DNA of 64,000 nt from Yuukianura sp. NJ FZ-2021 (GCA_046563655.1 JAJCTO010000009.1:744001-808000), one strand, 5' to 3'. Shown: positions 9,001 through 31,546, counted from the stretch's first letter. The notes: generated from the letters alone by a model not told the origin. Program-made: numbers and translations.

Positions 9001-12000
9001 AGCCCAACTCCACTATGCAACAAGTGCATAAATCTGACTGTCATTTTGGTATAAACTAATGTGGGAACTATACAACGAAGTTTTAAACATACCGAAAAAT
9101 GGAATTTATGCCTTGTTATCGCTTATAACCATCTTCATGGAACGCATCTAATACCGGTCCACTTTGTCGTAGTGCATCAACGACTATTACATACGGTGAA
9201 CCACTTGTTGTCAGCCTTCATCTTTGAGCTCAAAGGAGAAGTGCCGGTGAAATGACAAGCGCGACCTCACTACAAATACCGAACCAGTACTCATTTTGAC
9301 ACCATGATACACAATGACTCCGACGGCAATGGAACTTCAGGGGATCCCATTATTACATTTTCTAAATCAAAATCGAACGTTCCGCATTATTTGTTATTTT
9401 GATTAAAATTGTTAGGAAAGACTTTTTTATGTCATACTACCACCTTGCACTTCCAACAAAACACACCTGAATAACTAACTGGTGCTCAACACTAATCTGG
9501 AATTATGTTTTAGCCCAACTCCACTATGCAACAAGTGCATAATTCTAACTGTCATTTTGGTATAAACTAATGTGGGAACTATACAACGAAGTTTTAAGCA
9601 TACCGAAAAATGGAATTTATGCCTTGTTATCTGTTATAACCATGTTCATGGAACGCATCTAATACCGGTCCACTTTGTCGTTGTGCATCAAAGACTATTA
9701 CACACGGTGAACCACTTGTTGTCAGCCTTCATCTTTGAGCTCAAAGGAGAAGTGCCGGTGAAATGACAAGCTCGCCCTCACTACAAATAACAACTAGTAC
9801 TCATTTTGACACCATGATACACAATAACTCCGACGGCAATGGAGCTTCAGGGGATCCTATCATTACATTTTCAAAATCAAAATCGAACATTCCGCATTAT
9901 TTGTTATTTTGATTAAAATTGTTAGGAAAGACTTTTTTATGTCATACTACCACCTTGCACTTCCAACAAAACACACCTGAATAACTGGTGTTCAACAATA
10001 ATCTGGAATTATATTTTAGCTCAGCTCCACTATGCAACAAGTGCATAAATCTAACTGTCATTTTGGTATAAACTAATGTAGGAACTATACAACGAAGTTT
10101 TAAACATACTGAAAAATGGAATTTATGCCTTGTTATCGCTTATAACCATCTTCATGGAACGCATCTAATACCGGTCCACTTTGTTGTAGTGCATCAACGA
10201 CTATTACACACGGTGAACCACTTGTTGTCAGCCTTCATCTTTGGGCACAAAGGAGAAGTGCCGGTGAAATGACAAGCTCGCCCTCACTGCAGATACCAAC
10301 CAGTACTCATTTTGACACTATGAATCACAATGACTCAGACGGCAACTGAACTTCAGGGGAAATCCCATTATTAAGTTTTCTAAATCAAAATCGAACATTC
10401 AGCATTATTTGTTATTTTGATTAAAATTTTTAGAAAATACTTTTTTATGTCATACTACCACCTTGCACTTCCAATAAAGCACACCTGAAAAACTGGTGTT
10501 CAACACTAATCTGGAATTATATTTTAGCCCAACTCCACTATGCAACAAGTGCATAAATCTGACTGTCATTTTGGTATAAACTAATGTGGGAACTATACAA
10601 CGAAGTTTTAAACATACCGAAAAATGGAATTTATGCCTTGTTATCGCTTATAACCATCTTCATGGAACGCATCTAATACCGGTCCACTTTGTCGTAGTGC
10701 ATCAACGACTATTACATACGGTGAACCACTTGTTGTCAGCCTTCATCTTTGAGCTCAAAGGAGAAGTGCCGGTGAAATGACAAGCGCGACCTCACTACAA
10801 ATACCAACCAGTACTCATTTTGACACCATGATACACAATGACTCCGACGGCAAGGGAACTTCAGGGGATCCCATTATTACATTTTCTAAATCAAAATCGA
10901 ACATTCCGCATTATTTGTTATTTTGATTAAAATTGTTAGGAAAGACTTTTTTATGTCATACTACCACCTTGCACTTCCAACAAAACACACCTGAATAACT
11001 AACTGGTGCTCAACACTAATCTGGAATTATGTTTTAGCCCAACTCCACTATGCAACAAGTGCATAAATCTAACTGTCATTTTGGTATAAACTAATGTGGG
11101 AACTATACAACGAAGTTTTAAGCATACCGAAAAATGGAATTTATGCCTTGTTATCGCTTATAACCATGTTCATGGAACGCATCTAATACCGGTCCACTTT
11201 GTCGTTGTGCATCAAAGACTATTACACACGGTGAACCACTTGTTGTCAGCCTTCATCTTTGAGCTCAAAGGAGAAGTGCCGGTGAAATGACAAGCTCGCC
11301 CTCACTACAAATAACAACCAGTACTCATTTTGACACCATGATACACAATAACTCCGACGGCAATGGAGCTTCAGGGGATCCCATCATTACATTTTCTAAA
11401 TCAAAATCGAACATTCCGCATTATTTGTTATTTTGATTAAAATTGTTAGGAAAGACTTTTTTATGTCATACTACCACCTTGCACTTCCAACAAAACACAC
11501 CTGAATAACTGGTGTTCAACAATAATCTGGAATTATATTTTAGCTCAGCTCCACTATGCAACAAGTGCATAAATCTAACTGTCATTTTGGTATAAACTAA
11601 TGTAGGAACTATACAACGAAGTTTTAAACATACTGAAAAATGGAATTTATGCCTTGTTATCGCTTATAACCATCTTCATGGAACGCATCTAATACCGGTC
11701 CACTTTGTTGTAGTGCATCAACGACTATTACACACGGTGAACCACTTGTTGTCAGCCTTCATCTTTGGGCACAAAGGAGAAGTGCCGGTGAAATGACAAG
11801 CTCGCCCTCACTGCAGATACCAACCAGTACTCATTTTGACACTATGAATCACAATGACTCAGACGGCAACTGAACTTCAGGGGATCCCATTATTACATTT
11901 TCTAAATCAAAATCGAACATTTAGCATTATTTGTTATTTTGATTAAAATTTTTAGAAAATACTTTTTTATGTCATACTACCACCTTGCACTTCCAATAAA

Positions 12001-15000
12001 GCACACCTGAAAAACTGGTGTTCAACACTAATCTGGAATTATATTTTAGCCCAACTCCACTATGCAACAAGTGCATAAATCTGACTGTCATTTTGGTATA
12101 AACTAATGTGGGAACTATACAACGAAGTTTTAAACATACCGAAAAATGGAATTTATGCCTTGTTATCGCTTATAACCATCTTCATGGAACGCATCTAATA
12201 CCGGTCCACTTTGTCGTAGTGCATCAACGACTATTACATACGGTGAACCACTTGTTGTCAGCCTTCATCTTTGAGCTCAAAGGAGAAGTGCCGGTGAAAT
12301 GACAAGCGCGACCTCACTACAAATACCAACCAGTACTCATTTTGACACCATGATACACAATGACTCCGACGGCAAGGGAACTTCAGGGGATCCCATTATT
12401 ACATTTTCTAAATCAAAATCGAACATTCCGCATTATTTGTTATTTTGATTAAAATTGTTAGGAAAGACTTTTTTATGTCATACTACCACCTTGCACTTCC
12501 AACAAAACACACCTGAATAACTGGTGTTCAACAATAATCTGGAATTATATTTTAGCTCAGCTCCACTATGCAACAAGTGCATAAATCTAACTGTCATTTT
12601 GGTATAAACTAATGTAGGAACTATACAACGAAGTTTTAAACATACTGAAAAATGGAATTTATGCCTTGTTATCGCTTATAACCATCTTCATGGAACGCAT
12701 CTAATACCGGTCCACTTTGTTGTAGTGCATCAACGACTATTACACACGGTGAACCACTTGTTGTCAGCCTTCATCTTTGGGCACAAAGGAGAGGTGCCGG
12801 TGAAATGACAAGCTCGCCCTCACTGCAGATACCAACCAGTACTCATTTTGACACTATGAATCACAATGACTCAGACGGCAACTGAACTTCAGGGGAAATC
12901 CCATTATTAAGTTTTCTAAATCAAAATCGAACATTCAGCATTGTTTGTTATTTTGATTAAAATTTTTAGAAAATACTTTTTTATGTCATACTACCACCTT
13001 GCACTTCCAATAAAGCACACCTGAAAAACTGGTGTTCAACACTAATCTGGAATTATATTTTAGCCCAACTCCACTATGCAACAAGTGCATAAATCTGACT
13101 GTCATTTTGGTATAAACTAATGTGGGAACTATACAACGAAGTTTTAAACATACCGAAAAATGGAATTTATGCCTTGTTATCGCTTATAACCATCTTCATG
13201 GAACGCATCTAATACCGGTCCACTTTGTCGTAGTGCATCAACGACTATTACATACGGTGAACCACTTGTTGTCAGCCTTCATCTTTGAGCTCAAAGGAGA
13301 AGTGCCGGTGAAATGACAAGCGCGACCTCACTACAAATACCAACCAGTACTCATTTTGACACCATGATACACAATGACTCCGACGGCAAGGGAACTTCAG
13401 GGGATCCCATTATTACATTTTCTAAATCAAAATCGAACATTCCGCATTATTTGTTATTTTGATTAAAATTGTTAGGAAAGACTTTTTTATGTCATACTAC
13501 CACCTTGCACTTCCAACAAAACACACCTGAATAACTAACTGGTGCTCAACACTAATCTGGAATTATGTTTTAGCCCAACTCCACTATGCAACAAGTGCAT
13601 AAATCTAACTGTCATTTTGGTATAAACTAATGTGGGAACTATACAACGAAGTTTTAAGCATACCGAAAAATGGAATTTATGCCTTGTTATCGCTTATAAC
13701 CATGTTCATGGAACGCATCTAATACCGGTCCACTTTGTCGTTGTGCATCAAAGACTATTACACACGGTGAACCACTTGTTGTCAGCCTTCATCTTTGAGC
13801 TCAAAGGAGAAGTGCCGGTGAAATGACAAGCTCGCCCTCACTACAAATAACAACCAGTACTCATTTTGACACCATGATACACAATAACTCCGACGGCAAT
13901 GGAGCTTCAGGGGATCCCATCATTACATTTTCTAAATCAAAATCGAACATTCCGCATTATTTGTTATTTTGATTAAAATTGTTAGGAAAGACTTTTTTAT
14001 GTCATACTACCACCTTGCACTTCCAACAAAACACACCTGAATAACTGGTGTTCAACAATAATCTGGAATTATATTTTAGCTCAGCTCCACTATGCAACAA
14101 GTGCATAAATCTAACTGTCATTTTGGTATAAACTAATGTAGGAACTATACAACGAAGTTTTAAACATACTGAAAAATGGAATTTATGCCTTGTTATCGCT
14201 TATAACCATCTTCATGGAACGCATCTAATACCGGTCCACTTTGTTGTAGTGCATCAACGACTATTACACACGGTGAACCACTTGTTGTCAGCCTTCATCT
14301 TTGGGCACAAAGGAGAAGTGCCTGTGAAATGACAAGCTCGCCCTCACTGCAGATACCAACCAGTACTCATTTTGACACTATGAATCACAATGACTCAGAC
14401 GGCAACTGAACTTCAGGGAAATCCCATTATTAAGTTTTCTAAATCAAAATCGAACATTTAGCATTATTTGTTATTTTGATTAAAATTTTTAGAAAATACT
14501 TTTTTATGTCATACTACCACCTTGCACTTCCAATAAAGCACACCTGAAAAACTGGTGTTCAACACTAATCTGGAATTATATTTTAGCCCAACTCCACTAT
14601 GCAACAAGTGCATAAATCTGACTGTCATTTTGGTATAAACTAATGTGGGAACTATACAACGAAGTTTTAAACATACCGAAAAATGGAATTTATGCCTTGT
14701 TATCGCTTATAACCATCTTCATGGAACGCATCTAATACCGGTCCACTTTGTCGTAGTGCATCAACGACTATTACATACGGTGAACCACTTGTTGTCAGCC
14801 TTCATCTTTGAGCTCAAAGGAGAAGTGCCGGTGAAATGACAAGCTCGCCCTCACTACAAATAACAACCAGTACTCATTTTGACACCATGATACACAATAA
14901 CTCCGACGGCAATGGAGCTTCAGGGGATCCCATCATTACATTTTCTAAATCAAAATCGAACATTCCGCATTATTTGTTATTTTGATTAAAATTGTTAGGA

Positions 15001-16178
15001 AAGACTTTTTTATGTCATACTACCACCTTGCACTTCCAACAAAACACACCTGAATAACTGGTGTTCAACAATAATCTGGAATTATATTTTAGCTCAGCTC
15101 CACTATGCAACAAGTGCATAAATCTAACTGTCATTTTGGTATAAACTAATGTAGGAACTATACAACGAAGTTTTAAACATACTGAAAAATGGAATTTATG
15201 CCTTGTTATCGCTTATAACCATCTTCATGGAACGCATCTAATACCGGTCCACTTTGTTGTAGTGCATCAACGACTATTACACACGGTGAACCACTTGTTG
15301 TCAGCCTTCATCTTTGGGCACAAAGGAGAAGTGCCTGTGAAATGACAAGCTCGCCCTCACTGCAGATACCAACCAGTACTCATTTTGACACTATGAATCA
15401 CAATGACTCAGACGGCAACTGAACTTCAGGGGAAATCCCATTATTAAGTTTTCTAAATCAAAATCGAACATTTAGCATTATTTGTTATTTTGATTAAAAT
15501 TTTTAGAAAATACTTTTTTATGTCATACTACCACCTTGCACTTCCAATAAAGCACACCTGAAAAACTGGTGTTCAACACTAATCTGGAATTATATTTTAG
15601 CCCAACTCCACTATGCAACAAGTGCATAAATCTGACTGTCATTTTGGTATAAACTAATGTGGGAACTATACAACGAAGTTTTAAACATACCGAAAAATGG
15701 AATTTATGCCTTGTTATCGCTTATAACCATCTTCATGGAACGCATCTAATACCGGTCCACTTTGTCGTAGTGCATCAACGACTATTACATACGGTGAACC
15801 ACTTGTTGTCAGCCTTCATCTTTGAGCTCAAAGGAGAAGTGCCGGTGAAATGACAAGCGCGACCTCACTACAAATACCAACCAGTACTCATTTTGACACC
15901 ATGATACACAATGACTCCGACGGCAAGGGAACTTCAGGGGATCCCATTATTACATTTTCTAAATCAAAATCGAACATTCCGCATTATTTGTTATTTTGAT
16001 TAAAATTGTTAGGAAAGACTTTTTTATGTCATACTACCACCTTGCACTTCCAACAAAACACACCTGAATAACTAACTGGTGCTCAACACTAATCTGGAAT
16101 TATGTTTTAGCCCAACTCCACTATGCAACAAGTGCATAAATCTAACTGTCATTTTGGTATAAACTAATGTGGGAACTA
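1..16178. repeat. Tandem satellite array, ~507-bp monomer (~32 copies), block 1
   Basis: Head-to-tail near-identical monomers. Marker motifs (e.g. GGAGAAGTGCCGGTGAAATGACAAG) and the spurious 64-aa ORF recur every ~505-511 bp (3987, 4495, 5509, 6017...). The array runs off the left edge. Confidence 0.99.
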
Positions 16179-16425
16179 TGAGACGGAAGTGACGGATGAT
16201 AGGTCTTCGCTAGACTACGGCGATGACCTGACGATGTGTGACCTCGATGCCACAGAATGTGGATGCCAATAAATGAATGCTACAAATCTGAACTGAAGAT
16301 TTGGTGGGGAGATGCTCTCCCTATGAATACCATTTATTGACTGAATGTATGAATCCTACCTATTCATATATGTGTGCTTAGCCTAGTCTTCCCGCGCTTC
16401 CTTGTGTGTGTCTCGTCCCGTCACA
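16179..16425 (-). repeat. 3' LTR of element 1 (247 bp)
   Basis: TGAGACGG...CCGTCACA, with a 7/8 terminal inverted repeat; identical to 25254-25500. Confidence 0.97.
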
Positions 16426-16572
16426 CCATACCACCGGGAAAAAGGGCCTCCGGGGGGGTACAGGGGGGGTTTGTAGTGTAAGGAAGGGGGTTTTGAAGTC
16501 TCCTGGAGTGGTGACTGGGTCCGTCCGTCATCGTCTTGAGTCATTATGGTTAGTAGTGACCTTTTGACACTA

Positions 16573-18612
16573 CTATTTCTTGTAAGGATGATGGCGGTTG
16601 TTTTTGGACTGATTTTGGGGCTGATTTTGGTTTTGATTTTTTTGTTGATTTTGATTTTGTTTTTCTTCTTGTATCCGAATTTGGGAACGTTGTCGCCGTT
16701 GCTTTCCAAGGTGATCTTGGAGTTTCTTTTTGTGTGATTCCGCAAAGAGAGGGTGATGCTTTCTTGCATGTTTTTTGCGTATTTCGCACTCTTTGCGAAA
16801 CTCTTCGTCTTTGCGGTCCTTAAATGTGCAGTTGACCTTAGTGTGACCTTGGAACCAGCATGCGAAGCAAAGTTGGTTTTGAACACTTGGTTCTGGAATT
16901 GCTTCCTGTACTTGTTTTTGAAGTTCAACAATTCTTTCGGAATTGTTAACTGTGACCATAATAATTTCTTTTTCCACAGAACTTGCAGTGACTTGAGCTG
17001 TGGATGGAGTTGGATTTTCAGTAACTTCAGTTTGTGTTTGTTCTGTAACCATGTTTTCTTGCATGGTTTGTGTGCTTGAATCGTCAGTTTGAATAGTTGA
17101 AGTTTGCGTTTGAATGCTTGAATTTTGAATTTGGGTTTGGATTGGCGTTTGAATTGGAGTTTGAAGAGGCTGTTCATTTAAGATTTCATTTGTAAATGAC
17201 TCAATGTCGCCGTCTGCCGTCATCTCTATGTCTTGTGGCTCTTCTGTATTTTGTGATTGTTGAATTCTGCCGTTACAGAATTCGACAAGTGAATCTACGG
17301 ATTCCACCGAGTCCCAGCGACATGGGTTTAGGTTGTAGGAAGGTGGTACAACAATTACTGATTTGAGTTTTTTCTTGGGATTTTTAGTTTGATCATCTGC
17401 CTCTTCCTGAGTAATGGGAATCTCCCATTGGTCCATTTTTTGTTCTAGATTTGCATAGTGTTCTTGGAGGATCTCGAGTACTTGCTTGCTCATGCGTCGT
17501 GCGAACATGCTGTCCTCACGAACTTTTGGCGAAAGTGCAATCAATTCTTGCACTGATTTGATTTTTGATTTTGCCTTGACAATTGCAATCATTTTTTCAG
17601 CTGAGCAGACGAAGATACTCGGTACATCGTTAAATTTTGCAATTTCCTCTCTGAGTTCAAATATTTTTCTGAGTATGGAATTTTGTATTCCAGTGAAGTT
17701 TTTCATCTTCTGAATATCTTCAACTGTTTCTTTGATTGGTAATCCGATTCCTGGAGTTCTGGCGGGAAATTTGAATGTCGCAGCAGTCCATTCTTTTTCG
17801 TAAAGTTTGTAGCATTTTCCGCCATATTGTTGCTTCATGTTGTTCCAAACTCTAAGTAAGAGATGAGAATCTGCCCTTGCGTATTCGATTAAGTCTTGGT
17901 GAAGTGGTCTTTTGCGGAAATCTGCTGCTCTTAAGTCTTTGTTGGTTTTTTCAACATTTGGTATGAACGTAGAAACTACGTTCCAGAATTTTTCTGTCTC
18001 TCTGCGTCTGCGCTCGTCTGGATTTTCGGGGAACTTGTGGAATGCAGTTTGAATGTCCACGATTCCGACTGGGAAAATGTTATAAAACAAATTCAATTTC
18101 CTGATGTCTTCTTTTGCATCGAATCCGATTTTCACAATTTCTGGATTTTCAAGTATTGGTTTCAAGTCTTGGATTTTCGGGCCGAATTCAAATGGACAAA
18201 CGATAAAGTCTTTTGCATGTGTTGATAATTGGAACAGTGCAGGATAAGTGTGTCCAAAGTATCCTTTGTCGTTTCCAGGTGAGAATTCAAGGTCAAAGGC
18301 AATTTCTTCTTGTATGTTAAGTTCATCAATCATCGATTGGAGTTCCTTTTCTGTTTTAGGACAGATGATTGGGGTAAGTTTTCTGTCATCGGTGATACTG
18401 TGGCCAGCTCTTAGAGTAGACATGTTTTGTGTAACATGAAATTTCGTCATCTCAGTTAGTTTTGGATTTTGAACGAATTGATATCCGTGTTTGTTTCGTG
18501 CAACGCAGAAGTTTCGAAATTTTGAGAATCTCCGATCAAAAAATGGTCGTCTTTCTGCTCTTCCATATTTCTCGTTCATGTCTTTCGTAAGTTGTAACCA
18601 ATTGGATGCCAT
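16573..18612 (-). CDS. ORF3: RRP6/EXOSC10 (RNase D family)-like DEDDy 3'-5' exonuclease + HRDC domain + Q/T-rich linker + CCHC zinc knuckle + basic/QN tail (679 aa)
   Basis: ExoI IAFDLEF; ALFQLSTHAKDFIV; LKPILENPEIVKIGFDAKEDI (ExoII); GIVDIQ; ADFRKRPLHQDLIEYARADSHLL (ExoIII; cf. RRP6 ADWRxRPLxxxMxxYARxDTHYL). HRDC-like ILRKIFELREEIAKFNDVPSIFVC follows. CFACWFQGHTKVNC fits C-X2-C-X4-H-X4-C. Confidence 0.9.
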   Translation of the reverse strand: MASNWLQLTKDMNEKYGRAERRPFFDRRFSKFRNFCVARNKHGYQFVQNPKLTEMTKFHVTQNMSTLRAGHSITDDRKLTPIICPKTEKELQSMIDELNIQEEIAFDLEFSPGNDKGYFGHTYPALFQLSTHAKDFIVCPFEFGPKIQDLKPILENPEIVKIGFDAKEDIRKLNLFYNIFPVGIVDIQTAFHKFPENPDERRRRETEKFWNVVSTFIPNVEKTNKDLRAADFRKRPLHQDLIEYARADSHLLLRVWNNMKQQYGGKCYKLYEKEWTAATFKFPARTPGIGLPIKETVEDIQKMKNFTGIQNSILRKIFELREEIAKFNDVPSIFVCSAEKMIAIVKAKSKIKSVQELIALSPKVREDSMFARRMSKQVLEILQEHYANLEQKMDQWEIPITQEEADDQTKNPKKKLKSVIVVPPSYNLNPCRWDSVESVDSLVEFCNGRIQQSQNTEEPQDIEMTADGDIESFTNEILNEQPLQTPIQTPIQTQIQNSSIQTQTSTIQTDDSSTQTMQENMVTEQTQTEVTENPTPSTAQVTASSVEKEIIMVTVNNSERIVELQKQVQEAIPEPSVQNQLCFACWFQGHTKVNCTFKDRKDEEFRKECEIRKKHARKHHPLFAESHKKKLQDHLGKQRRQRSQIRIQEEKQNQNQQKNQNQNQPQNQSKNNRHHPYKK

Positions 18613-18630
18613 TCTGAAATTTAAAATGAC
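18613..18630 (-). promoter_or_regulatory. Putative 3' splice acceptor for a subgenomic ORF3 mRNA
   Basis: Minus strand reads GTCATTTTAAATTTCAG|A-ATG. The acceptor AG (18615-18614) is one base before the ORF3 ATG (18612). Confidence 0.55.
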
Positions 18631-18704
18631 AATGTTATTTGGGTCTGATTTTAATTTTTGATTTTAGGTTTATAAATTTTTGTTTTTGCGCATTTTGTAT
18701 TTTT

Positions 18705-21700
18705 TTATTTCCGGTAGCCCGCTAATGTCCGGTAATTTACTCTAGTACGACGTCTCAATCTCGATTGAGGTTCGTTTTCCGTGTTCAACGTTTCCGAAAC
18801 GTTTGAACTTAATTTATTTGAGTTTGTTTTTATTTTCCGTTTAAAATATAATTTTATTTGAGATACGTGTCGTCTACCGACGTGAGAATTATCGTCAATT
18901 CTCAAAATCTCATAAGTTATTGGTGTGGCTTTCTTGCCAATTTTATAAGGACCTTCCCAACGATGGGATAATTTTTGTGCAATTCCTTCATCTTTATTGG
19001 AAAGAATGTGAGTTTTAATGAGGACGAAATCTCCCTCATTGAATGTCACTTGACGGTGTGCTTTGTCATAATGGATTTTGTTTTTCTCATGAGCTTTTGT
19101 CATATTTTCACGAACGTATTCGATTAATTCTTTTAATTGATCTGGAACTTTTTGAGCTTTTTCGTAATCGAATTTCGTTGGTCCTTCTTGTAAATTTCGA
19201 TCGAATGGAAGTGGAATTTCTCTTCCAAGGTTCAGCAATGCTGGAGTGACTTTTGTAGTTTCGTTTGTGACTGTGCGCAATGCCAGTGCAAATTTTTGAA
19301 GATTTTCGTCCCATTTGTGGTGACTGTCTTCAATGTAGGCTTGGATCATGGTTTTGATGCTTCTATTTGTTCTTTCTGAGTGATTTGCTTGTGGGTGGTA
19401 TTCCGCGACCATCCTATGTTTGATTTTCCATTTTTCACATAAATCTGCGATAATAGTTGAAGTGTATTGTGATCCATGATCTGAGATTATTGTATGCGGT
19501 GCTCCAAACCGGCAAAATATTTGATTTTCTAAGATTTCTTCTGTTTTCTTTGCTGTTGCTGCTGTCATCGGGAAAAGCTCAACCCATTTTGACAGTTCAT
19601 CTAAGACAACGAGTAAATACTTGCATTGTCTTCCGCCTGCGCTTGTAGGAAATGGACCTTGGTAGTCCACATGAATTGTTCCAAATACTTCAGATGGCGG
19701 TTTTGCAATTCCTAATTCTCCATGAGGTTTTTGATTTGAAATTTTTACTCTTTGACATTTGTCGCATGTTTTTACGAAATTTGCAATTTCTCTGTTCATG
19801 TTATTCCAATAACATCTTTGTTTGATTCTCTCTAGAGTTTTCGTTCTCCCGAAGTGTCCGGCTTCTGGGGAGTCGTGGAAAATTTCCATTATTTTTGTTT
19901 TCATATGTTCTGGAATTACTGGTACCATTGTTTTTTCTTCATTTTTGTAAGGATCCTTGTCGTTTTTGGTATTTTTTGAGTTGACGAACTGCGTCTGAGG
20001 TTCATGACTCCTCTCTTCAGCTGTCTTCTCTGGACTTAATTTTGATATTGTTGCCGTAATGACGGTCTTTGGATGAAGACAATTTGGTTTAAGACAAATT
20101 GCTTCTTGTTTGATTTTTGTTTTGACTTGAGTAGATTTTGGTAATGTTGTCGTAGTTCCTCTGAATGGTTTGATTTTTCTGAACAGAACGTTTCTGGTGA
20201 ATACATAGTTACTAGTTATGCTTGGCCGAGCATTCTTAGCAACTGTGAGTTCGTTGATGATTTTTGTAAGTTCGGGGTCCTTTTTCTGTTCTGCTGCTAT
20301 GTCCTCCATTGAAGGGGTACAGTAGACAAGCAAAAATGTTGGAACTAGAATATTGTCTCTGTCTTGGAGCATATCTGGATCGTTTGGTTGTTCTGGAAGA
20401 CTGGCACGTGAAAGTGCATCTGCAACTACATTTTCTGATCCTTTTCTGAATCGGAGTGTAGCGTCCCAGGATGTGATCTCGATTGCCCATTTTGTAAGTT
20501 TTGCTTTTTTGTTTTTCATTGAATTTAAGTAGCTGACTGCTTTGTTGTCAGTTTCAATTGTGAATGGATGTCCTTCGATAAATTCCCTGAATTTATCGTA
20601 TGCGAAAATTATTGCGTATAATTCTTTTTCGTGAATGTGAGCACTGCGTTCTGATTTTTTGAGTGATTTGCTTGCGAACATGATCGGTCTTTCTTTCCCG
20701 TCGACTTCTTGAAGTAGAACTGCTCCGAGTCCATTTTCAGATGCATCACATTGCATTATGATTGGTTTTGAATAGTCAATTGTTTTGAGAATGACTTCCT
20801 CAGCCATTGCTTTTTTCATTTCTTGAAAGGATTTTTCTTGTTCTGGTCCCCATTTCCATTTTGTATTTTTTCTAAGAAGTTGGTACATCGGTTCTGCTTT
20901 TTGACTGAAATTTCGGATGAATGTAGCGTACCATGCGCACATTCCATGAAATCTCAAAATGTCTTGTTTACACTGCGGTGTAGGAAATTCTGTGATCGCT
21001 TTGACTTTGGATGGTTGTTTTGTAATTCCTTCCGGTCCAGCGATGTGACCAATGTATTGTACTTCTTTCTGTGCCCAAACTGATTTGAGTCGATTTATGG
21101 TTAGTTTCGCCTCTTTGAGTCTCTCCAACGCCATTTCCAAATGTTTGTAGTGCTCTTCCAATGTTGGTGAGTAGATGAGAATGTCGTCAACGAAAATTTT
21201 AATGAAGACATCGACGTATCCTTGAAATACGATTCTCATCAGAGAGGTGAATGTTTTTGGAGAATTTTTGAGTCCCATCGGCATTACCAAAAATTCGTAA
21301 TGGCCGTCTTGAGTAATGAATGCTGTTTTTTCAATGCTGTTTTCGTGCATTGGAATTTGCCAAAATCCGGAGTTCATGTCGAGCACTGTGTACCAGTAGT
21401 TTGGCGGTATTGTTCGTAAGATGGAATTACAGTTGTCCATCGGACCTGCGTTTTTCTTCATACTTGCATTCAGTTTGATGTAGTTAATACAAAGCCTGTA
21501 TTTATCTGAATTTTTCTTTTTTTCTAACACCACCGGTGCTGAATATGGAGATCTTGAATGTCGTACCATTCCTTTCTTCATCAATTGCTCAATTTCTTCG
21601 TTCATTGCATTTCTGAGATTGGGTGGATATTTGTAAGGTCTGAGTTGAATTGGATTTCCCTCGGTTTCGATTTCATGTCGAGTGAGATCGGTTCTTCCGC

Positions 21701-22310
21701 TCAAGTTGTCGTTCCTTGCGACTTCGGGAAATTTTTGAATAATTTGAAGTATTCTTGCTTCTTTTTCATCGATTGGTGTTTTTCCGTCTGGTTGTTCATG
21801 AGTAATGCTGAAGACAACAGCATTTTGACGGTTATTGAGTGAGAATATTGTTGGAAGTTTGTCTTCTGGATTAGATTTAAACCAGAACTTTTCTCCTGAA
21901 ACGTCCAGGATAATTTCATGTTTCTTCATCACATCTTTGCCAATTATTAGAGGGAATGGAAGTTTCTCCATTACGTAGGCATTTGTGATAATAATTTTGT
22001 TTTGAATTTTGAATTGGAGTTGAATTGATCCAATTGGTTGAATTTTTTCATTGTTTGCAATAACTAGTCTCACATTATTGCTGGAGTTGAAGTTCTTTTG
22101 AATTTTCTTGGCTACTCTTTCGTGAATGAGAGTATAGTCGCTTCCAGTATCGAATATGGCTTCGATTTCGGGAGTTTTTGATAGAATTAAAGATGTTGCA
22201 CCTTGGTTTGTTTCGAATTTGAGAATTGGGAGTAGATAAGAAGGTGCTGGGAGCTTATCTTCCCTTAGCAGTTTGACTGCGAGTTTGATGGCTGGGGTTG
22301 GTGTTTTTGT
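18705..22310 (-). CDS. pol: Pol polyprotein (aspartic protease, reverse transcriptase, RNase H, integrase), -1 frame relative to gag
   Basis: The frame is open from 22310, upstream of the ORF-track start at 22073, and includes protease AIFDTGSDYTLI...IIGKD. RT: LDMNSGFWQIPM, YEFLVMPMGLKNSP, FVDD. RNase H: QCDASENGLGAVL, EKELYAI, TDNKA, NVVADALSR. Integrase: H-X6-H...CDKC, D-D-E (VDYQG, SDHGSQY, ERTNR) and GPY motif WEGPYKI. Confidence 0.97.
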   Translation of the reverse strand, partial: TKTPTPAIKLAVKLLREDKLPAPSYLLPILKFETNQGATSLILSKTPEIEAIFDTGSDYTLIHERVAKKIQKNFNSSNNVRLVIANNEKIQPIGSIQLQFKIQNKIIITNAYVMEKLPFPLIIGKDVMKKHEIILDVSGEKFWFKSNPEDKLPTIFSLNNRQNAVVFSITHEQPDGKTPIDEKEARILQIIQKFPEVARNDNLSGRTDLTRHEIETEGNPIQLRPYKYPPNLRNAMNEEIEQLMKKGMVRHSRSPYSAPVVLEKKKNSDKYRLCINYIKLNASMKKNAGPMDNCNSILRTIPPNYWYTVLDMNSGFWQIPMHENSIEKTAFITQDGHYEFLVMPMGLKNSPKTFTSLMRIVFQGYVDVFIKIFVDDILIYSPTLEEHYKHLEMALERLKEAKLTINRLKSVWAQKEVQYIGHIAGPEGITKQPSKVKAITEFPTPQCKQDILRFHGMCAWYATFIRNFSQKAEPMYQLLRKNTKWKWGPEQEKSFQEMKKAMAEEVILKTIDYSKPIIMQCDASENGLGAVLLQEVDGKERPIMFASKSLKKSERSAHIHEKELYAIIFAYDKFREFIEGHPFTIETDNKAVSYLNSMKNKKAKLTKWAIEITSWDATLRFRKGSENVVADALSRASLPEQPNDPDMLQDRDNILVPTFLLVYCTPSMEDIAAEQKKDPELTKIINELTVAKNARPSITSNYVFTRNVLFRKIKPFRGTTTTLPKSTQVKTKIKQEAICLKPNCLHPKTVITATISKLSPEKTAEERSHEPQTQFVNSKNTKNDKDPYKNEEKTMVPVIPEHMKTKIMEIFHDSPEAGHFGRTKTLERIKQRCYWNNMNREIANFVKTCDKCQRVKISNQKPHGELGIAKPPSEVFGTIHVDYQGPFPTSAGGRQCKYLLVVLDELSKWVELFPMTAATAKKTEEILENQIFCRFGAPHTIISDHGSQYTSTIIADLCEKWKIKHRMVAEYHPQANHSERTNRSIKTMIQAYIEDSHHKWDENLQKFALALRTVTNETTKVTPALLNLGREIPLPFDRNLQEGPTKFDYEKAQKVPDQLKELIEYVRENMTKAHEKNKIHYDKAHRQVTFNEGDFVLIKTHILSNKDEGIAQKLSHRWEGPYKIGKKATPITYEILRIDDNSHVGRRHVSQIKLYFKRKIKTNSNKLSSNVSETLNTENEPQSRLRRRTRVNYRTLAGYRK
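22234..22277 (-). promoter_or_regulatory. Putative -1 programmed ribosomal frameshift signal (gag-pol)
   Basis: G_UCA_AAC (22277-22271), a 6-nt spacer containing the gag stop, then a GGGA/UCCC stem whose loop AGAUAAG is complementary to downstream CUUAUCU (H-type pseudoknot). gag and pol overlap by ~15 codons in the -1 frame. Confidence 0.55.
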
Positions 22311-23935
22311 TCAGTATTTGTATTGTAATTTTCATACTCTTCAAAGTACTCCTCTTGAGTTACTAATGCTGTGCCTTGTTTACTGGGACATTGACGAGCA
22401 ATGTGTCCGTATCCCCGACATTTTCTGCACTGAACGCCATCTTGGTTGTTGGTTTGTTGTTCATTGTTTGAATTGTTTGGATACGGTCGGCTTTGGCTGG
22501 CTGGGTTGCCTCTTGAATTACCTCGAGTGTAATTCGAACGGTAATTTGGATCATAATTTCGTCCTTTGTAATTTGGATTGATGTTTTGGGTACTACTGTT
22601 GTTGCCTCCTCGGCCTCTGTTTGATCCACGATTACCACGGTTGCCACGACCTCTGTAATTTCCTCGTTGGGAATTTTCAGTTTGTTGATTTTCAGTTTGT
22701 TGGCCGTCAGTTTGATTTGTTTCTTGAGTTTCGGCATTTTGGGATCTAGTATTGTAGTAAGTACGGCCTCTTCCTTTGCCTCTGTAACCTCCTCGCCCAC
22801 GGGAATTTCTTCCACGTGAGTAGTAATTTGAGGACTGACTTTGATCTTCATTTTGATCATTTTGATTATTTTTGAATTTCTTTTCTTCAATGTTGCTCAA
22901 TGCTGGAGCTACGATTGGTGGGAGTTTGTCGTTGCTTTTGCTTGATTTGTCCAATGCTGCCAAATTGTCGTGTACGGCTCTGCAAGCGTCAAACAAATCT
23001 TGTGGCGAATCGTACTCGTTAGTTCCAAGCATGTTTCTGATTCTGGGGTGTAGTGAGGCTTGAACTCTAATGAGTGATTCTGAAGTTGGTTCATTTGTAT
23101 AGCAGAGTCTCGAAAGTCTGAGCATTTCGTAGATGTGTGTTTCAGTTGGCTCATGTATCAATTGGACTTTGTTGGTTAAATATTTGATTCTGTTTCTATG
23201 TTCCATTGGATTGTCGAATCTTCTCATAAATTCGTGTTTGAATCCTCTCCAAGTGTCTGTTTCTGTTCTGACATGTTCCCACCATGCCTGTGATTCTTGT
23301 GGTAAAATTGATTTGACCATGTATAACCACTGTTGGGGTGGATAGCCTTGACCTTTGAGGTATCGTTCTGCGTCTTTGAGGAACGATTCGGCTGTAGATT
23401 TTTTTGGATTAAATTTGGGAATTGGAATTTGAGCTTGGACAGTCGTTAGTCGCACTGTTTGTAGTGCTTCTGTGAGGGTTTCAATTGAAACTGTTTGATT
23501 TGCTCCTGATTGTGACATACTGGAATGTCTAGATGCATCTGGTTCTTCTGGGATACGAGGCAATTGTTTTGGCATTATCTTTTGAGTATTGCTTCTGGCT
23601 GTGTCAGCAATGTTGATCGCAACCTGAATCATTTTTGCTAGTTGGGCCATTTGTTCATCAGTAAAGGCTGAACTTTGCGCTTTTGTGCTGCTTGTTCCAG
23701 GTTTTTCTTTATGGCGGCCCATCCGTGTTTTGGTTTTCTTAGGTGGTGGGTCTTCAGCCTCTAAGTCACGAAAGACGTTCTCATCGTCATCTTCTTCTAG
23801 ATCGATTTGTTGTTGCTCCATTTCTTGTTGTTCTTCTGAAGTGGACATCGTACTTCCGCGTTTAAGCCCACTTCTAGTTGTGCTGACGTATTCTGGATCG
23901 AGCGGTTTCAAGTTTCTCAAGTCTCGAAAACTCAT
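22265..23935 (-). CDS. gag: Gag polyprotein (556 aa)
   Basis: Retrotransposon capsid-like region IPKFNPK...AESFL...QAWW...TWRGFKHEFMRRF...Q..E, an RGG-rich region and CCHC knuckle CRKCRGYGHIARQC. Lies upstream of pol. Confidence 0.95.
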   Translation of the reverse strand: MSFRDLRNLKPLDPEYVSTTRSGLKRGSTMSTSEEQQEMEQQQIDLEEDDDENVFRDLEAEDPPPKKTKTRMGRHKEKPGTSSTKAQSSAFTDEQMAQLAKMIQVAINIADTARSNTQKIMPKQLPRIPEEPDASRHSSMSQSGANQTVSIETLTEALQTVRLTTVQAQIPIPKFNPKKSTAESFLKDAERYLKGQGYPPQQWLYMVKSILPQESQAWWEHVRTETDTWRGFKHEFMRRFDNPMEHRNRIKYLTNKVQLIHEPTETHIYEMLRLSRLCYTNEPTSESLIRVQASLHPRIRNMLGTNEYDSPQDLFDACRAVHDNLAALDKSSKSNDKLPPIVAPALSNIEEKKFKNNQNDQNEDQSQSSNYYSRGRNSRGRGGYRGKGRGRTYYNTRSQNAETQETNQTDGQQTENQQTENSQRGNYRGRGNRGNRGSNRGRGGNNSSTQNINPNYKGRNYDPNYRSNYTRGNSRGNPASQSRPYPNNSNNEQQTNNQDGVQCRKCRGYGHIARQCPSKQGTALVTQEEYFEEYENYNTNTEQKHQPQPSNSQSNC

Positions 23936-23955
23936 TGGACTGTCATTTGCTCTCG

Positions 23956-24606
23956 GGTTACCTTAACCAGGTTACCCTGCGGATTACCTTAACCAGGTTA
24001 TCCTGTGGATTACTTTACCCAAGTTATCCTGTTTTCGTGGATTACTTTGACCAAGTTATCCTGTAGATTACTTTAACCAAGTTATCCTGTGGATTACCTT
24101 GACCAGGTTATCCTGTTTTTGGATTACTTTCACCAAGTTATCCTGTTTTTGGATTACTTTCACCAAGTTATCCTGTTTTTGGATTACTTTCACCAAGTTA
24201 TCTTGTGGATTACCTTGACCAGGTTATCCTGTTTTTGGATTACTTTCACCAAGTTATCCTGTTTTTGGATTACTTTCACCAAGTTATCCTGTTTTTGGAT
24301 TACTTTCACCAAGTTATCCTGTTTTTGGATTACTTTCACCAAGTTATCCTGTGGATTACCTTGACCAGGTTATCCTGTTTTTGGATTACTTTGACCAAGT
24401 TATCCTGTTTTTGGATTACTTTCACCAAGTTATCCCGTTTTTGGATTACTTTCACCAAGTTATCCTGTGGATTACCTTGACCAGGTTATCCTGTTTTTGG
24501 ATTACTTTCACCAAGTTATCCTGTTTTTGGATTACTTTCACCAAGTTATCCTGTGGATTACCTTGACCAGGTTATCCTATGGATTACCTTCACCAGGTTA
24601 TCCTGT
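23956..24606. repeat. Tandem array of 23 imperfect-palindromic ~26-30-bp units in the 5' leader of element 1
   Basis: Unit GGATTAC(T/C)TT(C/G)ACCA(A/G)GTTATCCTGT(TTTT); 23 copies counted. Ends ~20 bp before the gag ATG. Confidence 0.95.
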
Positions 24607-25253
24607 TAACTGTTAAATTTAATTTCAATGAATTTAATTTTAATCCGGTTACGAATTGAAATTTTTCGAAATTTGTGTCCTTAATGTGCCACCATAAGGA
24701 ACGTTAATTAGTTGTTTTTGTTTTTTGACTTTTGCAAAAAAAAACTTTAATTTTTGAGTTTTTGTGTCATTACTGGGCCTCCGTAGTAAACTTTACGGTA
24801 AGTTATTTTTGTAATTAGTCATCAATTGTTTTCCGTCTTTTTGAACTTTTTGCAATCGTATTTTGTTGTTTGTACGTTACTAGACTTTGTAGTAAGATTT
24901 GTGTTTTGTTTTCTTTCCGTGCGGCCGTTTGTAGAAAGATATGTAAATTATCTGTCGTTAACTGCCGTTATCTGTCGTGGGATTTGTGAAAAAGAAAAAA
25001 ATCTCTTCTTCTCTTTTTTTTTTCTGGACTTTTCGCCAAAATGGCGGCGATGTCACGCCGTGACCTTTTGCGTATCCCACGCGCACTGTGACCTCAGGGA
25101 TCAATCACCAATTGACAATTTGATCAATTTATGTGTGGTTGTACCTCTTTGGTTCTTAGAAGTTGACCTCTTCCTCCTTTTTTGGCTCTGTTTCTTCTTT
25201 TTCGTCTGACTGCTTTCCGGAAGTGAGATTCGGCTGGCTGTCGGATCGTCAGG

Positions 25254-25500
25254 TGAGACGGAAGTGACGGATGATAGGTCTTCGCTAGACTACGGCGATG
25301 ACCTGACGATGTGTGACCTCGATGCCACAGAATGTGGATGCCAATAAATGAATGCTACAAATCTGAACTGAAGATTTGGTGGGGAGATGCTCTCCCTATG
25401 AATACCATTTATTGACTGAATGTATGAATCCTACCTATTCATATATGTGTGCTTAGCCTAGTCTTCCCGCGCTTCCTTGTGTGTGTCTCGTCCCGTCACA
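25254..25500 (-). repeat. 5' LTR of element 1 (247 bp)
   Basis: Identical to 16179-16425; followed by the TSD ACTA. Confidence 0.97.
25408..25446 (-). promoter_or_regulatory. Candidate LTR core promoter and polyA signal of element 1
   Basis: On the minus strand, ATATAT (25446-25441) lies ~25-29 nt upstream of an arthropod-type initiator TCAGT (25419-25415), which is followed one base later by AATAAA (25413-25408). Confidence 0.45.
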
Positions 25501-27489
25501 ACTATACAACGAAGTTTTAAACATACCGAAAAATGGAATTTATGCCTTGTTATCGCTTATAACCATCTTCATGGAACGCATCTAATACCGGTCCACTTTG
25601 TCGTAGTGCATCAACGACTATTACATACGGTGAACCACTTGTTGTCAGCCTTCATCTTTGAGCTCAAAGGAGAAGTGCCGGTGAAATGACAAGCGCGACC
25701 TCACTACAAATACCAACCAGTACTCATTTTGACACCATGATACACAATGACTCCGACGGCAATGGAACTTCAGGGGATCCCATTATTACATTTTCTAAAT
25801 CAAAATCGAACATTCCGCATTATTTGTTATTTTGATTAAAATTGTTAGGAAAGACTTTTTTATGTCATACTACCACCTTGCACTTCCAACAAAACACACC
25901 TGAATAACTAACTGGTGCTCAACACTAATCTGGAATTATGTTTTAGCCCAACTCCACTATGCAACAAGTGCATAAATCTAACTGTCATTTTGGTATAAAC
26001 TAATGTGGGAACTATACAACGAAGTTTTAAGCATACCGAAAAATGGAATTTATGCCTTGTTATCTGTTATAACCATGTTCATGGAACGCATCTAATACCG
26101 GTCCACTTTGTTGTAGTGCATCAACGACTATTACACACGGTGAACCACTTGTTGTCAGCCTTCATCTTTGGGCACAAAGGAGAAGTGCCGGTGAAATGAC
26201 AAGCTCGCCCTCACTGCAGATACCAACCAGTACTCATTTTGACACTATGAATCACAATGACTCAGACGGCAACTGAACTTCAGGGAAATCCCATTATTAA
26301 GTTTTCTAAATCAAAATCGAACATTCAGCATTATTTGTTATTTTGATTAAAATTTTTAGAAAATACTTTTTTATGTCATACTACCACCTTGCACTTCCAA
26401 TAAAGCACACCTGAAAAACTGGTGTTCAACACTAATCTGGAATTATATTTTAGCCCAACTCCACTATGCAACAAGTGCATAAATCTGACTGTCATTTTGG
26501 TATAAACTAATGTGGGAACTATACAACGAAGTTTTAAACATACCGAAAAATGGAATTTATGCCTTGTTATCGCTTATAACCATCTTCATGGAACGCATCT
26601 AATACCGGTCCACTTTGTTGTAGTGCATCAACGACTATTACACACGGTGAACCACTTGTTGTCAGCCTTCATCTTTGGGCACAAAGGAGAAGTGCCGGTG
26701 AAATGACAAGCTCGCCCTCACTGCAGATACCAACCAGTACTCATTTTGACACTATGAATCACAATGACTCAGACGGCAACTGAACTTCAGGGAAATCCCA
26801 TTATTAAGTTTTCTAAATCAAAATCGAACATTCAGCATTATTTGTTATTTTGATTAAAATTTTTAGAAAATACTTTTTTATGTCATACTACCACCTTGCA
26901 CTTCCAATAAAGCACACCTGAAAAACTGGTGTTCAACACTAATCTGGAATTATATTTTAGCCCAACTCCACTATGCAACAAGTGCATAAATCTGACTGTC
27001 ATTTTGGTATAAACTAATGTGGGAACTATACAACGAAGTTTTAAACATACCGAAAAATGGAATTTATGCCTTGTTATCGCTTATAACCATCTTCATGGAA
27101 CGCATCTAATACCGGTCCACTTTGTCGTAGTGCATCAACGACTATTACATACGGTGAACCACTTGTTGTCAGCCTTCATCTTTGAGCTCAAAGGAGAAGT
27201 GCCGGTGAAATGACAAGCGCGACCTCACTACAAATACCAACCAGTACTCATTTTGACACCATGATACACAATGACTCCGACGGCAATGGAACTTCAGGGG
27301 ATCCCATTATTACATTTTCTAAATCAAAATCGAACATTCCGCATTATTTGTTATTTTGATTAAAATTGTTAGGAAAGACTTTTTTATGTCATACTACCAC
27401 CTTGCACTTCCAACAAAACACACCTGAATAACTAACTGGTGCTCAACACTAATCTGGAATTATGTTTTAGCCCAACTCCACTATGCAAC
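25501..27489. repeat. Tandem satellite array, ~507-bp monomer (~4 copies), block 2, between the two retrotransposons
   Basis: Same monomer, orientation and register as block 1. Confidence 0.98.
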
Positions 27490-27922
27490 TGTGACCTCCC
27501 AGCCAGGGTGAACCTGGACATGGGTCACACACGTCGCCGCTTGGTCGGCGGTCTACTGGTTCGTCGACCTCTGTGCCCAGGTCCGAACACCACCGAAGTG
27601 GCGCAGGCCCTGGGTGCCAGCTCTAAGAATCGTGGCTGAGGAATATGGCTGAACGCTGTCACAAGGAAAGTCGTAGACGAAGGCAAAGTGTGGCTACGTT
27701 CCTTTATTGTCTCTAGAACCTCCCTACTCCAGTGACTGGACTCCGCCGTGACTCTCGGTCGGAAGAGGAACCATCTGGAAGATAGTTCCTCCTCGACCAA
27801 GCGCTCATCACTCACTGACTGACCATCGGGATATGACTGAGAACCTAGCCTCATCCCGAGTGCCGTCACACACCTCTGCTTGGAGACAAAGTGAGGAATC
27901 CCGCCCGGCGGGGTTACTCACA
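27490..27922 (-). repeat. 3' LTR of element 2 (433 bp)
   Basis: TGTGACCTCCC...GGGTTACTCACA; direct repeat of 37912-38344. Confidence 0.97.
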
Positions 27923-27932
27923 TATTCCCCGG
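27923..27932 (-). other. Short polypurine-tract-like motif of element 2
   Basis: Minus strand CCGGGGAATA directly abuts the 3' LTR TG. Confidence 0.5.
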
Positions 27933-29302: not shown

Positions 29303-29438
29303 GTTGTTGACGCTGCCTTGCGATGATACAATTGTAAATGAAAAAGGTTTAGACTAAGTTGATAATTTTGACTTATGAACATTCACACTAGAGAGTGAGA
29401 TACGAGCTAAAACTAAAACCAAAATGCTTGTTGCCAAC

Positions 29439-31458: not shown

Positions 31459-31546
31459 TTTTAAAACAAAAAGCGATGTCGGATAGAGATGTGTAAATGT
31501 GGGAATGGTGACATAATACGAGGCGAGTTGATTGTGATTGTGGTGG

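Follow-up and report, generated by a model that had tools for sequence, protein, structure and literature searches.

A zinc-knuckle nuclease resembling the Rrp6/EXOSC10 catalytic core as the third gene of a Ty3/Gypsy retrotransposon lineage

Why would a long terminal repeat (LTR) retrotransposon carry a nuclease of the RNA-exosome type in the position of an envelope gene (env), and is that gene its own or a recent acquisition from a host? This question is raised by a 64,000-nucleotide (nt) stretch of DNA from Yuukianura sp. NJ FZ-2021 (GCA_046563655.1, JAJCTO010000009.1:744001-808000), hereafter the window, which contains an intact, very young Ty3/Gypsy element with all three of its frames (gag, pol and the third open reading frame, ORF3) open. 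The evidence below leaves us highly confident that ORF3, in identity and biochemical type, is an Rrp6/EXOSC10 catalytic core serving as an accessory gene of an old Ty3/Gypsy lineage. A preliminary description made from the window had noted an uninterrupted frame of 679 amino acids (aa) after pol on the same strand, and this is what we found: ORF3 runs unbroken from its ATG on the minus strand, behind a 92-nt spacer, and is built as follows.

16573-18612, minus strand: ORF3, 679 aa plus stop, an Rrp6-like exonuclease with zinc knuckle (open reading frame, Pfam, PDB sequence search, AlphaFold2 (AF2) model, Foldseek).
18361-18612, minus strand: conserved N-terminal region, aa 1-84 (family-wide G..RP, N40 and P50; model confidence, pLDDT, 88-98 for residues 11-100).
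17827-18360, minus strand: EXO domain, aa 85-262, with the DEDDy residues D107, E109, D169, Y244 and D248 (PF01612, Rrp6 alignment, family conservation).
17431-17685, minus strand: HRDC-like helical domain, aa 310-394 (Pfam below cut-off, Rrp6 alignment, R321 and D329 invariant in the family, model helices 308-395).
16945-17394, minus strand: disordered acidic linker rich in T/Q/S/E, aa 407-556 (pLDDT <50, net charge -14, length and sequence variable among relatives).
16828-16869, minus strand: CX2CX4HX4C zinc knuckle, aa 582-595 (pattern match, recurrence in relatives).
16576-16827, minus strand: basic helical tail, aa 596-679, net charge +14 (pLDDT 79-92 for residues 581-660; a P..K/R-rich motif behind the knuckle recurs in relatives).

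Rrp6/EXOSC10 is the distributive 3'-5' exoribonuclease of the nuclear RNA exosome, and sequence, profile and structure comparisons place ORF3 closest to it. Pfam matched DNA_pol_A_exo1 (PF01612) to aa 85-262 with 82 bits (cut-off 23.6, E = 5.8e-23), while a phmmer search of PDB sequences returned yeast Rrp6 as the top match (E = 2.5e-16), aligned over aa 85-393. All five DEDDy positions were paired in that alignment, so that the catalytic set, read beforehand from the motifs AFDLE (aa 105), AKED (aa 166), ADFRKRPL (aa 230) and EYARAD (aa 243), is present and intact. A family profile built from ORF3 and 27 relatives and searched against PDB sequences matched human EXOSC10 best (E = 1.3e-80, 275 bits), followed by T. 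brucei RRP6 (E = 4.3e-75) and yeast Rrp6 (E = 2.4e-74). Further matches were E. coli RNase D (E = 1.8e-33, 119 bits), the mut-7 homologue (Nibbler; E = 1.2e-23, 87 bits), T. brucei RNase D (E = 1.8e-16, 63 bits), WRN (E = 1.5e-12), DNA polymerase I exo domains (E = 2.5e-8), EXD2 (E = 2.7e-7, 33 bits) and EXD1 (E about 1e-3, 21 bits). The EXOSC10 core 3saf aligned with profile positions 26-383 (E = 3.6e-79); because this match begins at position 26, the conserved N-terminus of ORF3, the C-terminal part of which (from about aa 34-50) aligns with the Rrp6/EXOSC10 linker preceding the EXO domain, can be equated with that linker. The AF2 model, built on an alignment (A1) and with a mean pLDDT of 72.5, had 10-residue block means of 88-98 for residues 11-190, 76 for 191-210, 93-97 for 211-260, 83-92 in most of 311-390 (falling to 61 at 361-370), below 50 for 407-556 and 79-92 for 581-660. 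In Foldseek the top matches of this model were Rrp6 catalytic cores (4nlb, E = 4.4e-18, TM 0.62 over 351 columns; then 3saf, 5c0y and 2hbj), with RNase D at E = 2.6e-11 and 7jw2 (the mut-7 homologue/Nibbler) also matched. The RRP6/EXOSC10-type EXO plus HRDC identity anticipated in the preliminary description is therefore supported by Pfam, PDB searches and Foldseek, and its C-terminal CCHC knuckle by the pattern match.

The HRDC domain is the part of this assignment against which the Pfam result speaks, since in ORF3 itself it scored 17.9 bits (E = 0.003; aa 310-360), under the cut-off of 23.8. We nonetheless consider the assignment sound because the phmmer alignment with Rrp6 reaches aa 393, relatives pass the cut-off (e.g., 43.9 bits in P0014), the model helices at 308-395 are confident and the Rrp6 fold match extends over ~350 columns. 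The segment, expected at about 17580-17690, is placed by Pfam at nt 17533-17685. Of the Pfam families that had been predicted, DNA_pol_A_exo1 was thus obtained, HRDC fell short of its cut-off and zf-CCHC was not reported for the ORF3 knuckle at E <= 1, although the knuckle itself (CFACWFQGHTKVNC) lies exactly at nt 16828-16869, as first described, and its exact pattern recurs at the same place in relatives.

Past the HRDC domain the C-terminus consists of the disordered linker, the knuckle and the basic tail, and profile alignments beyond HRDC traverse low-complexity sequence. No PMC2NT (PF08066) match was found in ORF3 at E <= 1. The protein thus looks like an Rrp6 core freed from the exosome and equipped with a nucleic-acid-binding module of its own. 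An env function was considered and rejected: ORF3 is a nuclease by Pfam and, as had been noted earlier for signal peptide and transmembrane segment alike, lacks any membrane segment (Kyte-Doolittle means over 19 residues peak at 1.16). In the Protein Atlas, the ORF3 query returned Rrp6-like clusters only (score 0.87, taken as a lead only), and the pol query returned Gypsy pol clusters from many phyla, with no pointer to any one host, insect or otherwise.

Whether the nuclease belongs to this copy or to its lineage was addressed through relatives. A HMMER search of 1.84 billion representatives yielded 1123 proteins at E <= 0.001, and we analysed the best 150 of these (P0001-P0150). By Pfam, 64 of the 150 are transposable-element-like (TE-like), with an EXO domain that starts near residue 75-125 and scores at most 113 bits and with PMC2NT in none; the class was set by a Pfam score threshold of <=115 bits, and many of its 64 members are fragments. 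The remaining 86 score at least 119.5 bits, carry PMC2NT in 42 cases and correspond to cellular Rrp6/EXOSC10. A strict CX2CX4HX4C pattern near the C-terminus was present in 20 of the 64 TE-like relatives versus none of the 86 others. Four members of the TE-like clan without the strict knuckle (P0015, P0016, P0027 and P0043) end in a common basic motif, KLGLPKI..KK.KGKKW..R.

For the linker-EXO-HRDC region we computed a quick, unrooted maximum-likelihood tree, without bootstraps, from 103 rows, namely the window ORF3, 58 TE-like relatives (all but six short fragments of the 64) and 44 of the 86 others. It placed the 59 TE-like rows on one side of a branch with SH-aLRT support of 100 and all 44 cellular rows on the other, with the window ORF3 inside a 25-row sub-clade (support 98). 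ORF3 hence does not group with cellular Rrp6 orthologues in this unrooted tree, although a sister relation is possible. The division between TE-like and cellular sequences is supported by this comparison of sequences; a single origin is not proven by it.

Several relatives are also linked to pol. Three gene predictions (P0013, P0033 and P0047) have N-termini homologous to the last ~150 residues of the window pol (36-40% identity, E = 2e-21 to 8e-23) directly before the nuclease. A metagenome contig, L001, which was the sole locus found with alignment A3 as query, encodes an integrase C-terminus that is 49% identical to that of the window pol (E = 1e-69) and ends in the same RVNYRTLAGYR; an ORF3 homologue (P0006) follows 325 nt after the integrase end on the same strand. 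These pol-linked relatives share 25-30% identity with the window ORF3. Viral contigs queried with ORF3 and with P0047, and metagenome contigs queried with P0047, gave no locus, and a separate homologous-protein search with ORF3 and alignment A1 as queries gave no match. On L001 the Gypsy integrase (57-1145, minus strand) is truncated upstream, and two open frames of 125 and 236 aa lie there on the opposite strand; the 236-aa frame, which is basic and resembles a coiled coil, may be part of a further mobile element inserted there.

Because the TE-like clan is separated with an SH-aLRT of 100 and pol linkage extends to relatives of 25-30% identity, we regard ORF3 as a long-established feature of a diversified lineage of retroelements. 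The preliminary description had proposed that this element captured a host exosome-type nuclease; a recent capture by this copy was rejected, as the nuclease gene is a family trait.

The same 150 proteins bear on the idea, also raised in the preliminary description, that ORF3 acts as a decoy, mimicking Rrp6 and titrating exosome cofactors or core so that element transcripts are shielded, with catalysis secondary. ORF3 does descend from Rrp6/EXOSC10, and the nuclear exosome acts on transposon RNA. In Rrp6, Rrp47 and, via Rrp47, Mtr4 are bound by PMC2NT, and docking on the exosome core is the task of the C-terminal region. PMC2NT, the cofactor-binding module, occurs in 42 of the 86 others but neither in ORF3 nor in any of the 64 TE-like relatives; the C-terminus of ORF3 consists of knuckle and basic tail with no evident exosome-docking region; and catalytic residues that a pure decoy would not need are retained in at least 90% of the members aligned. 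We therefore regard a decoy function as highly improbable.

That conservation was assessed in 28 aligned members (mean column identity about 21%), where D107, E109, D169, Y244 and D248 are each kept in >=90%, as are R235-P236-L237, Q128, R321 and D329 of the HRDC domain and N-terminal positions. Variation among closer copies was drawn from sequencing runs. Contigs cover the element fully in runs X1, X2 and X4 (four runs, two studies); X1 contributed 297 contig pieces, of which 83, 131, 40 and 43 fall in identity classes of >=99, 95-99, 90-95 and <90%, indicating many diverged copies, and X4, which carries a second organism label, contributed 77. Among the 40 best-supported of 665 copy differences, 30 lie in ORF3, and 21 of these are synonymous and nine nonsynonymous, against 8.5 synonymous expected when the same substitution types are placed randomly in ORF3; none of 200,000 simulations reached 21. 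Within the EXO-HRDC core the synonymous share is 9 of 11. Of 52 insertions and deletions, the 12 listed comprise three of 2 nt in the pol-ORF3 spacer, nine in the leader or LTR and none in ORF3. Taken together, these contig-based counts are a strong hint of purifying selection on ORF3, short of a dN/dS estimate. The possibility that ORF3 is absent or decaying in sister elements, which had been considered at the outset, was not seen: it is present and conserved there, and synonymous differences are in excess between copies.

These counts also bear on whether ORF3 might be a passenger, that is, a host nuclease gene carried without a role for the element, the TE-like clades that are not linked to pol being an ordinary host gene family. 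Only five members show linkage to pol, and for the rotifer elements discussed below the authors found neither a significant deviation from neutrality nor a clear relation with copy number (PMC5408684). The synonymous excess in ORF3 argues against a passenger, as do the retention of catalytic residues and knuckle in a family of about 21% identity, the persistence of the nuclease gene behind pol in relatives of 25-30% identity and the conservation of its splice acceptor (below). We accordingly find this explanation scarcely credible.

How ORF3 might be expressed depends on the structure of the element as a whole, which is laid out on the minus strand as follows.

16179-25500, minus strand: complete Ty3/Gypsy LTR retrotransposon, 9322 bp.
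16175-16178, minus strand: target-site duplication (TSD), copy on the 3' side, TAGT on the element strand (sequence; same four bases at 25501-25504).
16179-16425, minus strand: 3' LTR, 247 nt, TG..CA (repeat comparison, 100% identical to 25254-25500).
18613-18704, minus strand: pol-ORF3 spacer, 92 nt, with a pyrimidine-rich tract and a CAG acceptor ending at 18614 (sequence, contig joint).
18705-22310, minus strand: pol, 1201 aa from stop to stop, with protease (PR), reverse transcriptase (RT), RNase H (RH), integrase (IN) and a GPY/F-type C-terminus (Pfam, open reading frames).
22265-23935, minus strand: gag, first ATG at 23935 and stop at 22265 (Pfam, frames, ATG and knuckle position).
23958-24607, minus strand: 30-nt tandem unit in about 22 copies, 5' untranslated region (Tandem Repeats Finder).
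25144-25145, minus strand: putative splice donor AAAGAG/GTACAA, 109 nt downstream of the 5' LTR (contig joint, sequence).
25254-25500, minus strand: 5' LTR (repeat comparison, sequence).
25501-25504, minus strand: TSD copy on the 5' side (sequence).

The identical 247-nt LTRs (100%), ending in TG..CA and flanked on either side by TAGT, bear out the earlier reading of a very recent insertion with ORF3 in the env position of an intact Gypsy element. Removing the 9322-bp element and one TSD copy restores the register of the surrounding satellite (start-to-start spacing 9836; 9836-9322-4 = 510). Direct TG..CA LTRs with a short TSD, a zinc knuckle in gag and the pol order PR-RT-RNase H-IN identify the element as Ty3/Gypsy. 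Pfam placed, in stop-to-stop coordinates, Asp protease at 48-126, RVT_1 at 265-423, RT_RNaseH at 512-612, Integrase_H2C2 at 799-857 and rve at 880-973 of pol, the C-terminus of which, past the integrase core, is SH3-like (GPY/F-type); no dUTPase family was among the Pfam hits for pol at E <= 1. Gag has a capsid-like region and a single CCHC knuckle (Pfam zf-CCHC, aa 511-527), and it overlaps pol, which lies in the -1 frame relative to it, by 46 nt.

One 298-nt contig from run X5 (depth 4.1) joins position 25145 to 18613, skipping 6531 bases with GT..AG ends on the element strand. The donor (AAAGAG/GTACAA, the slash marking the joint) and the acceptor (TTTTAAATTTCAG/A) are both consensus-like, and the acceptor stands directly before the ORF3 ATG, with the putative exon starting at 18613, one base upstream of it. 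The interval from the LTR end to the donor (25253-25145), read directly from the sequence, contains no ATG. L001, whose ORF3 is 28% identical to that of the window, has the same kind of acceptor, TCTTGTCTAAATTACAG/A ATG GC (pyrimidine tract-CAG-A-ATG-GC). Since the contig joint, the consensus-like sites and the corresponding acceptor in L001 agree, a spliced subgenomic ORF3 mRNA is likely. Expression from a spliced subgenomic mRNA is the strategy of env genes.

Two further observations concern the same runs. In X5, depth was near zero over gag-pol and 4-10 over ORF3 (not used here as evidence), contigs covering ORF3 and the LTR (16179-18666) and hardly 18667-25197. In X1, a joint at 18198/25246, whose ends are non-canonical and one side of which is only 28 nt long, connects the ORF3 interior with the position 8 nt past the 5' LTR; it is not interpreted by itself. 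Together, this joint and the X5 coverage may reflect internally deleted or ORF3-only derivatives.

From these results, a mechanism can be outlined. The full-length transcript would be spliced, the GT donor (109 nt past the 5' LTR) being joined to the CAG acceptor one base before the ORF3 ATG, giving a subgenomic mRNA, as the contig joint and the conserved acceptor suggest. Its product would be an active, exosome-independent, two-metal 3'-to-5' exoribonuclease, to judge from the conserved catalytic residues and the Rrp6 fold, and the knuckle and basic tail may bind RNA in the manner of a nucleocapsid and so bring the nuclease to RNA 3' ends. The substrate may lie within the element's own ribonucleoprotein (RNP), a placement that we put forward tentatively and with a good deal of doubt. 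A candidate task is the trimming of an RNA primer to the primer-binding site, proposed because the sequence behind the 5' LTR has no initial TGG; alternative tasks would be the clearing of 3' tails or of RNase H leftovers. Either task would aid reverse transcription, mainly to the benefit of the encoding element, and we favour a role in the element's own RNP because selection acting on every element's own copy is easier to understand if the gain is made in cis than if it is a public good. To the complete chain, in which a spliced, active and exosome-independent exoribonuclease works on the element RNP, we assign close to, if just short of, an even chance.

Primer-binding sites complementary to a CCA-ended tRNA are expected to start with TGG. 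The sequence that follows the 5' LTR here (25145-25253, CCTGACGATCCGACAGCC...) does not have TGG as its first bases, and the segment preceding the 3' LTR is weakly purine-rich. In yeast, host Rrp6 is a cofactor of Ty1 mobility, which deletion of rrp6 lowered 14-fold, an effect that the authors ascribe to ribosome biogenesis (PMC4673737); this may be taken as side support for a role in replication.

The main competing account is counter-silencing, in which ORF3 would act in trans as a knuckle-guided exoribonuclease that degrades or over-trims unmethylated siRNA or piRNA intermediates or their precursors and thereby relieves silencing of the element. The clade to which the enzyme belongs includes small-RNA trimmers, and the match to the mut-7 homologue/Nibbler is clear, if less strong (E = 1.2e-23; Foldseek 7jw2). 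Retroviral accessory proteins that counter host defence are expressed separately from Gag-Pol, and ORF3, by the contig joint and the L001 acceptor, is probably likewise expressed apart from them. Deep conservation across divergent elements would fit a universal host pathway, and a link to silencing has been raised for the rotifer ORFs too (Rodriguez et al., available text of PMC5408684). However, all transposons would share in the effect of a general suppressor as a public good, and this is a poor account of purifying selection on each element's own copy, and the likeness to Rrp6 is far above that to Nibbler/mut-7 (275 vs 87 bits). We consider counter-silencing unlikely, though well worth keeping in view. 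More doubtful still is a fuller version, in which a widespread and ancient Gypsy clade would have swapped env for an exosome-independent Rrp6 nuclease that suppresses small-RNA silencing by destroying guides or precursors, its spliced mRNA being recopied into the genome as ORF3-only elements.

The profile matches also bear on a DNA-directed function, in which ORF3 would proofread reverse transcription, as the preliminary description had suggested, or trim the 3' ends of linear DNA before integration. DEDDy enzymes do include DNA nucleases, among them WRN (E = 1.5e-12) and the DNA polymerase I exo domains (2.5e-8). Nonetheless, RNA enzymes (Rrp6/EXOSC10 first, RNase D second) are by far the nearest relatives, ORF3 is not fused to the RT and 3'-end processing is already handled by the integrase, which together make a DNA substrate very unlikely.

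Besides the HRDC score noted above, several points weigh against the favoured account of an old, selected and spliced ORF3 working within the element's own RNP. The clean division between TE-like and cellular proteins may be aided by long-branch effects, because the score threshold correlates with divergence. Linkage to pol is confined to the sub-clade of the window (5 of 25 rows, including the window), and TE-like clades outside it could be host genes. The synonymous excess comes from a partial, contig-derived sample (40 of 665 differences), and contigs lose rare variants. The spliced joint is a single short contig of depth 4.1 from a run whose type is guessed to be DNA, and none of the five sequencing runs, in two studies, that contain the element is on record as RNA. 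Because X5 is guessed to be DNA, its contig may be a DNA retro-copy of spliced RNA; either way, splicing would have occurred. As for the primer, the 18 nt after the 5' LTR had no tRNA-like look by eye, and a tRNA scan of the window found none. Finally, the present data would fit replication and counter-defence alike, and separate expression of an accessory protein agrees equally well with a target in the host.

Among characterised retroelements, the closest counterparts are those of bdelloid rotifers. Rodriguez, Kenefick and Arkhipova (2017) found DEDDy exonuclease ORF3s in two Gypsy clades of bdelloids, Juno and Vesta, as well as in the Penelope-like Athena elements (PMC5408684); the rotifer DEDDy ORFs recur in later texts (PMC5718144, PMC6431247 and PMC6338049, with Athena/Terminon Penelope-like elements in PMC6431247). 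According to PMC5408684, Juno and Vesta share with the window element a Gypsy-type gag, a pol with PR-RT-RH-IN and, after pol, a third ORF that encodes a 3'-5' exonuclease of the DEDDy type, free of membrane and coiled-coil segments; they also have near-identical TG..CA LTRs, and the function of their ORF3 is discussed as RNA 3'-end processing. Given that an LTR element with a DEDDy ORF3 is thereby already in print, the novelty of the window element's architecture is smaller than first proposed.

The two sets of elements differ in several respects, as far as PMC5408684 describes the rotifer ones. Juno, Vesta and TelKA all have a dUTPase between PR and RT, in contrast to the window pol, which has none. 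The rotifer ORF3s were recognised via HHpred and called RNase D-like with a DEED motif, HRDC being nowhere mentioned in that text, whereas the window ORF3 has a direct Pfam match, a DEDD-Y set, an Rrp6/EXOSC10-like core with HRDC and a CX2CX4HX4C knuckle, and is set apart from them by their published description. Moreover, the rotifer authors saw no departure from neutrality (PMC5408684), whereas copies of the window ORF3 show a synonymous excess. An old common origin of the rotifer and window ORF3s, compared by description, is possible. Our literature search, which did not extend to Repbase, Dfam or GyDB, found no Rrp6/EXOSC10-type or HRDC-bearing ORF in an LTR retrotransposon; on DEDDy nucleases in retrotransposons, only work of the Arkhipova group proved relevant.

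With cellular Rrp6/EXOSC10, the best match by profile (E = 1.3e-80) and by fold, ORF3 shares the pre-EXO linker, the DEDDy EXO domain, the ADxRxRPL-type segment and HRDC. It differs in having neither PMC2NT nor an evident exosome-docking C-terminus and in carrying an acidic linker, knuckle and basic tail instead, and it is encoded by a retrotransposon and falls in a separate clan. T. brucei RNase D trims the U-tails of guide RNAs. Like ORF3, this protein combines a DEDDy exonuclease with a CCHC finger, and its available PDB records (7C42-7C4C, 'CCHC-type domain-containing protein') include structures solved with U12 RNA. It is, however, a cellular protein without an HRDC match and far more distant from the family profile (E = 1.8e-16 vs about 1e-80 for EXOSC10). 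A Protein Atlas cluster of Euglenozoa proteins likewise combines PF01612 with zf-CCHC. The EXO plus CCHC combination exists independently in trypanosome RNase D. The small-RNA-pathway DEDDy proteins Nibbler/mut-7, EXD1 and EXD2 share the EXO fold and differ from ORF3 in score (87, 21 and 33 bits for Nibbler, EXD1 and EXD2 vs 275 for EXOSC10), with no HRDC in those matches. With errantiviruses, which are insect Gypsy elements with env, the window element shares the three-ORF Gypsy layout, a 4-bp TSD, a tandem array in the 5' leader and an ORF3 apparently expressed from spliced subgenomic RNA; theirs is a membrane fusion glycoprotein, whereas that of the window is a soluble nuclease with neither signal peptide nor transmembrane segment.

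The element lies within a satellite of about 507-bp period, with copies 87-100% alike and a very even base composition, which occupies 1-16178, 25501-27489 and 38212-64000 of the window. A second, unrelated LTR element occupies 27490-38211, with direct repeats of at least 300 nt that are 99% identical (27490-27789 and 37912-38211); its minus-strand frames are short and broken only, among them a gag-like one at 31547-32272 and a protease-like one at 30724-31566, and tBLASTn of the first element's gag, pol and ORF3 against it gave no match. Since both LTR elements sit inside the satellite, the region has the appearance of heterochromatin or of a centromere-type array. In runs X1, X2 and X4 the summed contig depth over the 30-nt leader repeat (23958-24607) was 7 to 35 times that of the rest of the element, so it is probable either that those genomes have this repeat at other places too or that its arrays differ widely in length. 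Several contig joints and loose ends are located within it.

Accessory genes of retrotransposons are rare, and they reveal steps that limit the life of a retroelement. A DEDDy nuclease ORF3 has so far been known solely from bdelloid rotifers, without sign of selection or clue to expression. The present element adds a second such nuclease, clearly Rrp6-derived, with EXO and HRDC domains fused to a nucleocapsid-like knuckle. This nuclease is characteristic of a diversified Gypsy lineage that recurs in several unrelated data sets. Both its codons and its catalytic residues appear to be under purifying selection, and it is probably expressed by splicing, as env genes are. With a defined protein and an intact young element at hand, the use of an exosome nuclease by a retroelement becomes testable. 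If its substrate proves to be host small RNAs, ORF3 would represent a new type of counter-defence and the first such enzyme known for a retrotransposon; if it is the element's own RNA, the gene would point to an unrecognised 3'-end processing step in LTR retrotransposition.

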